This document shows, piece by piece, positions 2,701-53,301 of a stretch of 64,000 nucleotides of DNA. The stretch covers positions 2,016,001-2,080,000 of the forward strand of contig OZ242180.1 in assembly GCA_965205485.1 (NCBI GenBank). Reading direction: 5' to 3'. Both the position numbers and the translations under genes were made by a program. The notes under the pieces are model-generated. The model saw nothing but the letters and a program-made list of their open reading frames with translations, was not told the DNA's origin and did not search any database. The DNA comes from Candidatus Latescibacterota bacterium. GTDB taxonomy: Bacteria > Latescibacterota > UBA2968 > GCA-2709665. The stretch's first letter is position 1. Each line of letters begins with the position of its first letter.

Positions 2701-2733
2701 AGCTGTCAGCTATCAGCCGTCAGCTATCAGCTA
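2701..2733. repeat. Heptamer tandem repeat (TCAGC(TA/CG))n
   Basis: agctgtcagctatcagccgtcagctatcagcta; shorter copy at ~51944-51960, followed by the same AGCAAAAGACA(G/A)GATCAAAA tail. Confidence 0.75.
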
Positions 2734-2841
2734 AGAGCAAAAGACAGGATCAAAACCAACCCGTCCGGCTCAACGCCTCCGGCGTGGGTAGGAAAATAGG
2801 TGGTCGAAACAAGATTCAAGAACCCCTTTCCCCAAATTCCC

Positions 2842-3012
2842 TGCCTACGGCGTGTTCCTTTTGAAGCGACCAAAAGGAACCAAAAGTCGCCGCTGGGCGC
2901 GGGACCTGCCCTATGCATGGCGCAAATATCCTCACCGGACGCACTTGATCCGCAGGCCTGCCAACACCGGAGGATACCGACAATCGGAGCGGGACGGAAC
3001 AACGCGCCCTGC
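2842..3012 (-). repeat. Structured repeat element, diverged copy C
   Basis: Minus strand: TTCCGTCCCGC-N27-GCAGGCC-N20-TGAGG...TTTTGGTTCCTTTTG/CAAAAGGAAC hairpin (2854-2880); closing stem 3003-3012 pairs with 2915-2924. Confidence 0.6.
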
Positions 3013-3147
3013 TCTGGAAGTACTCGCGACAGGCACGGCGGTTGTAACCGGTTTGGCTTCCAGGGTTAGAGCCGTTTTCAGCAGTCAGCCAAAAGCGGTT
3101 CCTGTAAAGGACAAGCGTGGGAATCACCGATATCTCCACTGCTATGT

Positions 3148-3172
3148 GGGCAACCACAAGGGTTGCCCCTAC
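3148..3172 (-). repeat. GTAG-type REP palindrome
   Basis: Minus strand GTAGGGGCAACCCTTGTGGTTGCCC: GTAG tetranucleotide followed by an imperfect palindrome. Confidence 0.7.
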
Positions 3173-3204
3173 AAATTCGAATGGAGCGTGTCCGGTGGTT
3201 GCGT

Positions 3205-3475
3205 GGGGGGTTTTTCCACGCCATTCCGTTCAGCACCGAATTACGATTTGTCTAAACATGTACGCAGGCCACAATCGTCGGTAAATGCCACTGAGGAAAT
3301 TCGTGGAAAAACCGGCTCCCCGCCGAGGGGCGCGCTTCTTTTTGGTCCTTTTTCTTACGCGGATAAGAAAAAGGACGTAAATAATTGGAAAACAAAGGAT
3401 TTGCGAGAAAAGAGCTGGCATGCAAATGGCAAAAACAGTCGTTTTCCTTTCTATTCAAAATCGTGCCTGCTGCGG
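3205..3475 (+). repeat. Structured repeat element, copy A
   Basis: Collinear with 52105-52375; stem GGTTTTTCCACG (3209-3220)/CGTGGAAAAACC (3302-3313); 13-bp hairpin 3345-3376. Confidence 0.8.
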
Positions 3476-3504
3476 CTTACAATGCCAACAGGAAACAGGA
3501 CGAG

Positions 3505-4543
3505 ATGCTGAACATTGCGGTCATCGGAGCCGGAAATATCGCCCAGCGGCACCTGGAAGTACTCACCGACCTTCGCGAGGGGCGTGTGACGACGCTTGTG
3601 GACAGCAACCCCCGCGTTCTGGAAGAGACTGGCGCGCGGTTCGGCGTGTCGAATCGCCTGAACTCGCATGAGAGCCTGCTTGAAGGGGATCGGCCGGACG
3701 CCGTTCACTTCCACGTATCGGAAGAAAAAGCTTTTCGTTCTCGTGAGCGTCCTCCAGGTCGCCGCGGTCGCCGCGGACTTCATTCGGTCCGGAATCCCGA
3801 CTTTTCTGGAAAAGCCTCCCGGCCTATATACGTCCCAGACCCGTGCGCTGGCCGACCTGGCGCGAGCGGTGGGTACGCCGGCGATGGTGGGCGTAAACCG
3901 GCGGTTCTATTCCACGCTTCTCAAGGGCAGGGAACTGGTCCTCGAATCCGGGCCGGTACAGAGCGTCACCGTAAACGCCCACGAAGATATCCGGCGGGTC
4001 CGGGAAAACCCGAAATTTCCGGAAGAGGTCATGAAACGCTGGAGCGCAGCCAACGGCATTCACGCCCTGGATCTGCTGCGATTCTTTGGGGGCGACGTGG
4101 CGAGCGTCCGGACGATGCACCGTACCGTGGAGGGTCCCATGCCGGACTGTTGTTCGGCGCTGTTGACCTTCTCAGGCGGGGCGGTCGGACGTGCGTCTAT
4201 GGACTGGTTCGCTCCGGGAGGGCACCGCGTGGAAGTGCGCGGCAATGGGGTTACCTTCACGTCCGGTCTTGGACGGGCCGCAACCTTGAGGCGCAGGGGT
4301 GGCGCGCCGGAGAACGTCGAAGGGGATGAAATCGATCGACGCTACAAAGCAGGCTTTTATCGGCAGGACCGCGCGTTCCTGAGATGGGTCCGGAACGGGG
4401 GCTCGCTCCCGTTCCCGGCCTGTGGTCTGGAAGATGCGGTGAAGACGATGGAGTTGATCGACGCCATCTCGGGGAACTCGTCGTTCAATCCTCCGAGTTG
4501 CCGTCAATCGTCTCCTGCAGAAGCCGAACGGCCGTCTGAATGA
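3505..4543 (+). pseudogene. Gfo/Idh/MocA oxidoreductase disrupted by a ~28-nt insertion (3706-3733)
   Basis: MLNIAVIGAGNIA...DRPDAV in one frame; FVLV...FLEKPPG...GVNRRF...NGIHALDLL in the +1 frame; removing 28 nt restores 'PDAVFVLV'. Confidence 0.8.
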
Positions 4544-51906: not shown

Positions 51907-52104
51907 AAAGCAGGACCTCGCGCCCCAAGCCCAGTAAAGAAAACTGTCAGCCGTCAGCTAGAATCAAAAGCAAAAGACAAGATCAAAAGCAACCCCTCCG
52001 CCCTGCCCAGACCTCTCTCCCCGGCCCTCTCTCCCGCCGGGAGAGAGGGAGACAAGTCGGGTTTCACTCTATCAATGCATTTCACAACCGGCGACGGGGG
52101 GTAC

Positions 52105-52385
52105 GGGGGGTTTTTCCGTGCCAATCCGTCCAGCGCATTTGTACTGATACAGCTGAAGGGTTGGCAGGCCGGCCAATTCCCATTTATGCCTCTGAGGTGA
52201 TTCACGGAAAAACCGGCCCGCTGCCGAAGGGCGCGCTTCTTTTTGGTCCTTCTTCCCGTGGCGCATAAGAAAAAGGACGTAAAAGAAAGAAAATAAAGGC
52301 GGATTTATGAAAAAAACTGATACGCAAATGACATACCTGTAGTTTGCCTGTCAATACGAAATCATGCCTACGGCGTGTTCCTTAA
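52105..52385 (+). repeat. Structured repeat element, copy B
   Basis: Collinear with 3205-3475; stem GGTTTTTCCGTG (52109-52120)/CACGGAAAAACC (52203-52214); ends with TGCCTACGGCGTGTTCCTT as at 2842. Confidence 0.8.
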
Positions 52386-52551
52386 AAGCGGGGAGACGGA
52401 AGACGTAGTGGGTAGAGATCACCTGCCTTGTCAGGTTGTCCTCTCGTGCCGGAGGCAACGAGGAATCAAACATCGGGCAAGGATTTCCTCTCCCGTCTAC
52501 CCGGTTTTATCGCCAGGTAGAGCGTCTCACGTCTACCCGATTTTATCGATT

Positions 52552-53301
52552 CTACGGTTTTGACGCCATGTAGAGTGTGGCGAGGGTCAGCCGGCGTTCC
52601 ACCGCATCCTGAAACCCCGCCTGCGTCAAACGCATTCGAAATGCTTCTCCCTCCGGAAATCCCATAACGGACTCATAGAGATACCGGTACGCCAGAGGGT
52701 TCCGTGAAACAAGCCGGCCGATTCCGGGAAGGATGATTCTGAAATAGAAGAGGTAAACCCTGCTCAACAGGAACGCTCTGGGACGGGAAAACTCCAGAAT
52801 CAACAGGAACGCTCTGGGACGGGAAAACTCCAGAATCGCCAGCCGGCCGCCCGGGCGCAGCACACGGAGTATCTCGAGAAGGCCGGCGTTCAGGTCCGAA
52901 AAGTTCCGAACTCCGAAACCGATCGTTACCGCGTGAAACCGTGCATCGGGAAACGGCAGCCGTTGCGCGTCTCCCCGAAGCAGGTACAGCCGGCCGGATC
53001 TTCTCTTTCGCTTTCTGTTCCCGATCCGAAGCATTGGCAGTGAAAGGTCGGCGCCCACAACCCGCACCCCCGGGTCGCGCGCAGCCGCTTCGAGTCCCAG
53101 GTCGGCCGTTCCGGTTGCCAGATCCAGGATCCACCAGCCCGTTTCCGGATCCAGTGCGTCGACCGTCCAGCGCCGCCAGAGAATATCCACGCCGGCGCTC
53201 AACAGGTGGTTCAGCAGATCGTACGTGCCGGCAATACCGTCGAACATCTGACGAACGAAGGTCCGCCTGGCATCGCGTTCCTGATGGTCGGAACCCGCCA
53301 C
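52552..53301 (-). CDS. ubiE: UbiE/MenG-family quinone C-methyltransferase carrying a 36-bp in-frame tandem duplication
   Basis: MFDGIA..YDLLN.LLS.G...WR, LDLATGTAD, FGVRN, RVLRPGG, AYRYL.ES..FP. Confidence 0.88.
   Translation of the reverse strand: MAGSDHQERDARRTFVRQMFDGIAGTYDLLNHLLSAGVDILWRRWTVDALDPETGWWILDLATGTADLGLEAAARDPGVRVVGADLSLPMLRIGNRKRKRRSGRLYLLRGDAQRLPFPDARFHAVTIGFGVRNFSDLNAGLLEILRVLRPGGRLAILEFSRPRAFLLILEFSRPRAFLLSRVYLFYFRIILPGIGRLVSRNPLAYRYLYESVMGFPEGEAFRMRLTQAGFQDAVERRLTLATLYMASKP
52765..52836. repeat. Perfect 36-bp tandem duplication within ubiE
   Basis: CAACAGGAACGCTCTGGGACGGGAAAACTCCAGAAT x2 = ILEFSRPRAFLL x2. Confidence 0.95.

Follow-up and report, generated by a model that had tools for sequence, protein, structure and literature searches.

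The window analysed here is a 64,000-nucleotide stretch of DNA from a Candidatus Latescibacterota bacterium and corresponds to C1:2016001-2080000 of its genome (G000), a single 5.13-Mb contig. Three copies of a structured intergenic element (A, B and C) lie in this window. The initial annotation had placed them, their strands and their stems correctly, and their variable segments measure 29, 29 and 27 nt (3235-3263, 52135-52163 and 2962-2988). Copies C (minus strand) and A (plus strand) stand back to back in one gene gap, after a gene of the sodium/solute symporter family and a small ORF. Copy B sits between argS and a UbiE-type methyltransferase gene. The coordinates of the features are collected in Table 1. 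An oxidoreductase gene (3385-4543) is split over two frames; other sequencing runs do not have 28 nt at 3704, which indicates a frame-shifting insertion in this strain or assembly. The UbiE-type gene contains a tandem duplication of about 36 nt (52759-52837), unseen in the relatives displayed.

Table 1. Features of the three copies and of the neighbouring modules in the window
Feature	Position	Strand	Remark
Heptamer repeat and A-rich leader	2702..2756	+	separate hot-spot module, outside the element; from sequence
Copy C, terminal GCC-GTA-GGC triloop hairpin	2843..2851	-	corresponds to the TGCCTACGGCG junction of the initial annotation, on the opposite strand
Copy C, T/A-rich 3' hairpin	2854..2880	-	all columns but one invariant in 17 C-type copies
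Copy C, small GC hairpin, G...A loop	2890..2902	-	equivalent covaries in A/B-type copies
Copy C, closing stem, 3' arm	2915..2924	-	
Copy C, 72-nt variable loop, TCCGT ... AGG.C	2927..2998	-	
Copy C, closing stem, 5' arm	3003..3012	-	
REP hairpin between copies C and A	3146..3172	+	separate module; 17 motif matches in G000
Copy A, 5' arm	3209..3220	+	change relative to the same G006 site starts within the arm
Copy A, 75-nt variable loop	3225..3299	+	
Copy A, 3' arm	3302..3313	+	
Copy A, small GC hairpin, loop GCCGA	3318..3330	+	
Copy A, T/A-rich 3' hairpin	3345..3376	+	elsewhere the target of IS1182, IS481 and IS110 insertions
Copy A, A-rich tail of about 90 nt	3377..3474	+	decayed junction at its end
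Heptamer repeat and leader ahead of copy B	51944..51988	+	separate module
CT/AG-rich REP hairpin	52013..52051	+	separate module; 13 of 30 DUF559 gene loci have a similar one within 300 nt
Copy B, 5' arm	52109..52120	+	
Copy B, 76-nt variable loop	52125..52200	+	8% from a copy at a different G006 site
Copy B, 3' arm	52203..52214	+	
Copy B, GC hairpin and T/A-rich hairpin	52215..52278	+	both slightly decayed
Copy B, A-rich tail to the TGCCTACGGCG junction	52279..52375	+	

Several sequences around the copies had first been counted as parts of the element. Both the heptamer leader and the REP hairpins are modules of their own, present also where the element is not. Heptamer runs occur at sites without it, open the argS-ubiE gap in relatives without copy B too and are found near 5 of 30 four-helix-bundle gene loci (within 300 nt). 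By its label, the hairpin between copies C and A is presumably a REP of the RAYT type, and we take the CT/AG-rich hairpin ahead of copy B to be BoxC-like. The TGCCT(ACGGCG) junction described at the outset is present, and its identity is now clear: the reverse complement of the junction is the terminal GCC-GTA-GGC hairpin of C-type copies.

The gene gaps are mosaics of other short modules. Sister modules of the same gaps adjoin DUF559, four-helix-bundle and Y1 genes, and another REP lies beside Y1 genes. At 52395-52510 of the window and at three other loci (L584, L541 and L570), further modules of these gaps consist of a hairpin or short repeats around a fixed-length variable spacer; such modules flank four-helix-bundle or DUF559 genes in tandem arrays. 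An unrelated repeat of about 360 bp (G000:C1:204969-205333 and about 16 further sites, 85-95% identical) carries two REP palindromes internally and short inverted repeats at its termini. A REP closely similar to that of this 360-bp repeat flanks Y1 genes in three genomes (G001, G009 and G013). Several REPIN-like systems, linked to different small proteins, appear to coexist in the genus.

The initial annotation described a three-copy element, which proved far too low: A, B and C are three of 61 loci of an intergenic repeat of about 190 nt. Iterated nucleotide profiles assigned 43 of these G000 loci to an A/B-like set (four of them with a third stem variant) and 18 to a C-like set, and 11 C copies stand back to back with an A/B-like copy. 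The loop is intact in 54 of the 61 loci; the loop statistics use these 54 and leave out the other seven. With about 60 copies per genome, the repeat was found by BLAST in all 14 other genomes of the genus, i.e., in 15 of 15 with G000. Across the phylum, 44 of 151 genomes matched a sequence-only model, including 18/18 in the same family, 20/30 in the sister family, 2/2 in f4 and 0/64 in f3, in a run that scored at most 17 candidates per genome, so that misses do not equal absences. Families f8-f10 gave weak single matches; these and the f4 matches are putative. In a pattern scan of species genomes, 79 of the 80 loci listed (of more than 120) fit the family profile; the records are titled as Latescibacterota, Gemmatimonadota MAGs or uncultured bacteria. 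Among metagenome matches, 36 of 38 were true members by the profile; one Microvirga match of the 80 and two of the 38 were left out as profile non-matches. Sponge metagenomes are among the DNA runs that contain the stretch, and contigs of four runs at the locus showed only strain mosaicism. The repeat family spans one order of Latescibacterota, and its hosts are uncultured marine bacteria.

BLAST searches with copy B and a 3' part against plasmids, and with copy C against phages, yielded no match with an E value below 0.2. Viral contigs were scanned with four patterns, giving 0, 0, 0 and 117 matches, and none of the 80 loci fetched fit the family profile. The hairpin-repeat family is previously undescribed: no description was found in the literature searched, in which the main texts of two 2026 intergenic-discovery preprints were covered in part. 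The word 'Latescibacter' is absent from the main text of 10.64898/2026.10.21.760802, whose supplements could hold this cluster.

All types share one layout. The 5' arm is followed by 4-5 nt, TCCGT, 34-36 nt, AGG.CA, 26-29 nt, TT and the 3' arm; a small GC hairpin, a T-tract, a T/A-rich hairpin and often a last GCC-GNA-GGC hairpin come after it. The constant scaffold first proposed holds in part: near-invariance is confined to TCCGT, two C's, AGG.CA and the TT next to the 3' arm, and the GCAGGCC and TGAGG blocks vary. An IHF-like motif occurs in some tails and matches exactly in only a few copies. At G000:C1:1294467 (+) and C1:4940580 (-), a 5' arm directly joins a motif like the 3' arm, the loop is absent and a different module comes next; these two sequences are possibly loop-less products or a related element.

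The closing stem has 9-12 bp and non-palindromic arms. In an alignment of 33 copies, all 362 cells are paired with 22 both-sided changes, which bears out the covarying stem of the initial annotation; none of 500 shuffles scored as high, a count that is not a probability given that the sequences are related. The stem sequence is wholly different between types and genera with pairing retained, and this covariation across genera upholds the view that selection acts on a folded single strand. Across 253 copies, departures from the commonest stem pair comprise 142 Watson-Crick, 26 G-T, 8 A-C and 36 other pairs. The small GC hairpin of A/B-type copies covaries as well. The loop is unpaired: the alignments revealed neither consensus pairs nor internal stems in it, and the 54 intact loops fold like their shuffles on both strands, whether RNA or DNA parameters are used (z about +0.1 to +0.4).

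The terminal triloops are GTA, GAA or GGA (GNA) in 95 of the 95 found, in copies that are related to each other; one ACA exception is visible elsewhere among the copies. GNA triloops are a DNA-type motif and are especially stable in DNA. The orientation relative to the upstream gene is the same for 32 of 60 copies and opposite for 28. The A/B-like copies lie on the lagging-strand template strand in 33 of 43 cases (p 0.0006); of the C copies, 12 of 18 lie in the opposite sense, which is no bias (p 0.24). The GC skew is weak at 1-2.6 Mb, where most copies are located. The lagging template is favoured by single-stranded DNA (ssDNA) elements of the IS608/ISDra2 type, according to the part of PMC6006769 considered. 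Because covariation is dominated by Watson-Crick pairs, the triloops are of the GNA type, gene direction is indifferent and the replication strands are used unequally, action as ssDNA rather than RNA is favoured. Beside the GC-skew minimum, at G000:C1:1.0-2.1 Mb, the element, the heptamer and the CT/AG-rich hairpin modules cluster and the 360-bp repeat does not.

A multicopy structured ncRNA is a rather unlikely alternative. The stem of such an RNA would present an open, protein-bound loop, by analogy with Y-RNAs or antitoxin RNAs, and the GC hairpin with its U-tract would end the transcript. This reading would explain the one-strand asymmetry of the stem variants (G-T pairs over A-C pairs), the terminator-like hairpin and the loop motifs conserved throughout the order, and loops that fold no better than shuffles (z about +0.3) are what a deliberately open loop would give. 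However, no common upstream sequence fit as a promoter, the triloops are of the DNA type, and copies are freely lost and disrupted by IS elements. A known RNA family was not recovered either: the Rfam search of the window yielded one tRNA only, and the best match at the A/C locus (E 0.25) left no family at the gathering score.

The loops vary more than the 3' part of the element. They differ by 33% on average in the 17 C-type copies, compared to 3.5% for the 3' part, and by 37% in the 37 A/B-type copies, compared to 15%. The 29-nt segments of copies A and B do look unrelated in a pairwise comparison, as was first noted, but they are homologous and joined by intermediates. Loops vary by point changes and by short patches found repeatedly on different backgrounds, without adenine bias. 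The length is 72-77 nt, a range partly set by the search pattern. The fixed length stressed in the initial annotation stands for the 29-, 29- and 27-nt segments but is less special than it appeared: between nearest copies in G000, the loop has 30 indels per 818 substitutions and the unrelated 360-bp repeat 10 per 478. Indel suppression in the loop, with a rate not below that of the control repeat, was rejected. A coding reading was also dropped, as length classes 1-2 nt apart shift the frame.

Such loops might be written by mutagenic copying, in which an error-prone polymerase or a reverse transcriptase (RT) would produce each loop in a manner resembling DGR retrohoming, with star-like divergence around a master. 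Nearest neighbours of the C type differ by 20.5% in the loop and by 3.0% in the 3' part, pairs of the L321/L388 type are without a close donor among 253 copies, and the tandem units of L193 share tails and differ in loops, as such copying would predict. The spectrum argues otherwise. Changes per consensus base in C-type loops (A 0.21, T 0.15, G 0.13, C 0.09) and in an A/B subfamily (0.105-0.14) are not adenine-specific, A's and T's are invariant at positions on both strands, singletons make up only 44 of 132 loop alleles, and neither G000 nor five further copy-rich genomes of its genus yielded an RT. Mutagenic copying is therefore very unlikely. A DGR variable repeat in the strict sense was rejected, with the adenine-specific spectrum unseen and RT absent from the same six genomes.

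There are 104 same-site, same-type pairs, and 100 of them join different loci. Within these 100 pairs, which are not independent, flank and loop both change in 70, both are kept in 12, the loop alone changes in 12 and the flank alone in 6. Twenty independent pairs share the upstream 60 nt, a fair neutral control since it varies between random paralogs as much as the loop does (43-46% versus 33-37%). The loop was significantly more diverged in 8 of the 20 and not in the other 12 (one-sided Fisher test, p<0.05, uncorrected). Pooled differences amount to 67/1197 (5.6%) upstream, 246/1472 (16.7%) in the loop and 32/600 (5.3%) downstream, with the contrast between loop and upstream part inflated by the choice of pairs with a low upstream distance. 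Upstream modules are replaced too (6 of 18 loop-keeping pairs), which shows that the loop is not alone in being mobile.

Loop exchange is clearest in copy A. Its upstream 60 nt are identical to those of the copy at the same site in G006 (L406), and the two loops differ at 30 of 73 positions; the L406 loop is 8 changes away from two other G000 copies. The change begins at the inner stem pairs and both arms change together, hence the two compensatory stem pairs pointed out in the initial annotation travel with the loop. Another pair (L408/L107) has a private decayed 3' end in common and loops 31/75 apart, which are 2 and 6 changes from other copies; the shared end bounds this swap to the loop and its arms. 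A third pair (L321/L388) differs at 0/60 positions upstream and 16/72 in the loop, with the nearest donor among the 253 copies 8 changes away. L221/L135 also combines heavy loop change with no close donor in that set. In L193, the tails of three tandem units show 2-5 differences and their loops differ at 11-31 of 73 positions. The swappable loops first suspected are thus literally true: the loop is frequently replaced at shared sites while the upstream flank is kept, and the breakpoint falls within the 5' stem arm or close to it.

A dedicated ssDNA cassette-exchange system would place function in the loops themselves. The stem would join the loop ends, a putative recombinase would swap the loops by strand exchange at the arms, and the resulting library of about 60 functional loop sequences of 72-77 nt could serve as ssDNA guides, decoys or homing templates. 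We consider such a system decidedly unlikely.

The element is gained and lost at syntenic intergenic hot spots. For 22 of the 33 relative copies with both flanks on one G000 site, no G000 copy is present there. In the argS-ubiE gap, copy B was found in none of the nine relatives shown, and three have a C-type copy instead. Presence and absence at syntenic sites agree with the non-autonomous mobile element proposed at the outset. Neither a clean empty site nor a target duplication was seen in the 15 filled/empty pairs displayed. A MITE derived from a DDE transposon was rejected, as terminal inverted repeats and a target-site duplication went unseen in 15 comparisons and the ends merge into other modules.

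The element is itself a target of insertion sequences. Two IS1182 and two IS481 copies in G000 sit in the loop of the 3' hairpin, and in G009 an IS110 splits this hairpin (L045). Many copies in two other genomes (L031-L039 and L155, in G015 and G019) have a short sequence after the 3' hairpin that resembles the ends of the G001 IS110. Judged from this likeness, the short sequence may be a miniature IS110 derivative targeting the repeat.

Spread may have required no dedicated enzyme. A bidirectional, terminator-like hairpin module could have been homogenised by RecA gene conversion and natural transformation, the loops being swapped simply as sequence between two conserved stretches. ComEC and DprA are encoded in G000, an identical copy with its flank is common to G000 and G006, and patchy multi-base changes recur on different backgrounds. 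Breakpoints also occur in other shared modules, and upstream part and loop change together in most same-site pairs (70/100). The GC hairpin of A/B copies lies between an A-tract and a T-tract. Nonetheless, such an account leaves unexplained how TCCGT, AGG.CA and a loop of 72-77 nt persist across two families with a rewritten stem, why the triloops are of the GNA type and how copies arrive at unrelated flanks. We regard it as unlikely.

The search for a moving enzyme covered G000, the neighbourhoods of copies and the loci of candidate genes. G000 has no match to IS110 (PF02371, PF01548), Y1, Y2, RT, DUF559 or GxxExxY; besides ComEC and DprA, it has two GIY-YIG domains, two four-helix-bundle genes and only two tyrosine recombinases. 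The element was beside 0 of 30 Y1 loci of the order among the matches listed, 0 of 21 Y2 loci and 0 of 30 GIY-YIG loci. Copies lie about 0.8-1.3 kb from the RT domain match at 2 of 30 RT loci, and the nearest case is a partial element match 418 nt from a DUF559 domain. Near Y1, RT, Y2, GIY-YIG, DUF559, four-helix-bundle and GxxExxY loci (21-30 each), copies were only chance neighbours. Linkage to IS110 or Y1 (TnpA-REP) genes, considered in the initial annotation, was not found. IS110 occurs in 5 of the 15 genus genomes, and at 16 IS110 loci copies were present only at L045, where the IS splits the hairpin.

Only IS1182 and IS481 were seen as mobile genes beside G000 copies. The ORF clusters displayed for 174 loci in relatives and 38 in metagenomes contained no shared mobile family; they comprised translations of the repeat, metabolic or housekeeping-type genes and alternative frames. 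An IS91/ISCR derivative was rejected, as none of the 21 Y2 loci carries the element. Open frames of about 1,200 aa with an internal Y1 domain were encountered at L311 (G011) and L312 (G008), with similar long frames in G009 and G016; by their look they are presumably DNA-methylase-type proteins. In G020, six near-identical IS91-family elements unrelated to the repeat (L447, L456, L459, L461, L463 and L465) each have an upstream gene, which we take from its appearance to be a tyrosine-recombinase N-terminus.

A programmable guide of the bridge/seek RNA type was the most far-reaching suggestion of the initial annotation. In the form of orphan guides, similar to bridge/seek RNAs or TIGR, the halves of the loop would pair with target DNA for a recombinase or nuclease acting in trans. 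Two variable segments of set length split by an invariant motif, loops exchanged as units and the IS110 within one G009 copy fit this idea. The proposed match of the variable segments to their own flanks or to other genomic sites was at chance level, however. In four tests on 240 copies, the longest loop-to-flank matches were at or within 0.13 nt of permuted controls (largest excess 6.84 versus 6.71, sd 0.05, on one strand), though exact insertion sites are undefined and a short-guide signal could escape this test. The longest matches between loops and the masked genome averaged 14.3 nt compared to 14.4 nt for shuffles. The loop is without internal stems, it evolves by point changes and patches rather than by spacer acquisition, and G000, with its 61 loci, has no IS110. 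The split hairpin in G009 makes the element the target of that IS110, and IS110 is present in a third of the genus genomes against all of them for the repeat. Orphan guides are extremely unlikely. Without a partner protein or function, the element remains a repeat family and not a new programmable system.

We consider it rather probable, at modest confidence, that the element is a REPIN-like non-autonomous mobile repeat which acts as folded ssDNA, is moved in trans by a candidate enzyme and exchanges loops at its stem arms. The strand would be exposed mainly on the lagging-strand template. A putative trans-acting ssDNA nuclease or transposase, HUH-like by analogy and perhaps carried by just a part of the cells that make up the gene pool, would recognise the invariant loop motifs and the 3' hairpins. 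This enzyme would copy the unit into clusters of repeats, where it would often land on a copy already present. The loops would then be swapped and patched through recombination between the conserved arms, driven by the enzyme or by RecA and transformation. The loop would mostly be neutral cargo, its length set by whatever binds TCCGT and AGG.CA. Against this explanation stands the fact that a mobilising gene was not found in G000 or beside the copies examined.

The spread of REPs and REPINs and the diversity of their spacers at a kept length are an open question, for which this family provides dozens of same-site pairs. Spacer replacement at the stem is visible in these pairs, so that exchange can be tested directly. 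The conservation of loop motifs throughout a bacterial order implies a candidate ssDNA-binding enzyme. The repeats also explain assembly breaks and are landing pads for three IS families in these bacteria.

BIMEs, mosaic intergenic repeats and BoxC-like hairpins form composite clusters of a few repeated modules and are targets of insertion sequences. The element shares the composite clusters and the IS targeting; unlike these repeats, it is a unit of about 190 nt with its own closing stem and a large loop that is exchanged between copies. In DGRs, a variable region of fixed length, followed by a conserved GC-rich stretch and a hairpin, is replaced in place. The same arrangement is seen here, but the element is non-coding and comes without an invariant template, an RT in the genome or adenine-specific change. 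IS110 encodes its bridge RNA in its non-coding end, whereas here IS110 inserts into the element. Bridge RNAs are described as having stem-loops whose two internal loops show covariation with target and donor (PMC11208160, in part). A constant scaffold with two variable stretches is common to both; relative to that part of the description, the element lacks the 5' stem-loop, the two internally looped stem-loops, the covariation with target and donor and a linked recombinase.

The closest likeness is to the REPIN/RAYT system. REPIN spacers are all different, fall into fixed length classes and fold into a hairpin, according to the sections of PMC3337134 considered. As far as these sections go, the element is likewise non-autonomous, intergenic, multicopy and polymorphic, with complementary ends, tandem arrays and a different spacer in every copy within fixed length classes; presumed movement as ssDNA and a bias to the lagging template are also shared (PMC3337134 and PMC6006769, both in part). 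In contrast to the two inverted REP palindromes of a REPIN, it has one closing stem and one-sided 3' hairpins, and in contrast to the folding REPIN spacer, its loop is unpaired with invariant motifs (PMC3337134, same sections). RAYT repeats flank their cognate Y1 gene, whereas no Y1 gene lies beside the copies examined; unlike in REPINs as portrayed there, the layout is kept across two families while the stem is rewritten (PMC3337134, same sections). The element works like a REPIN without being one.
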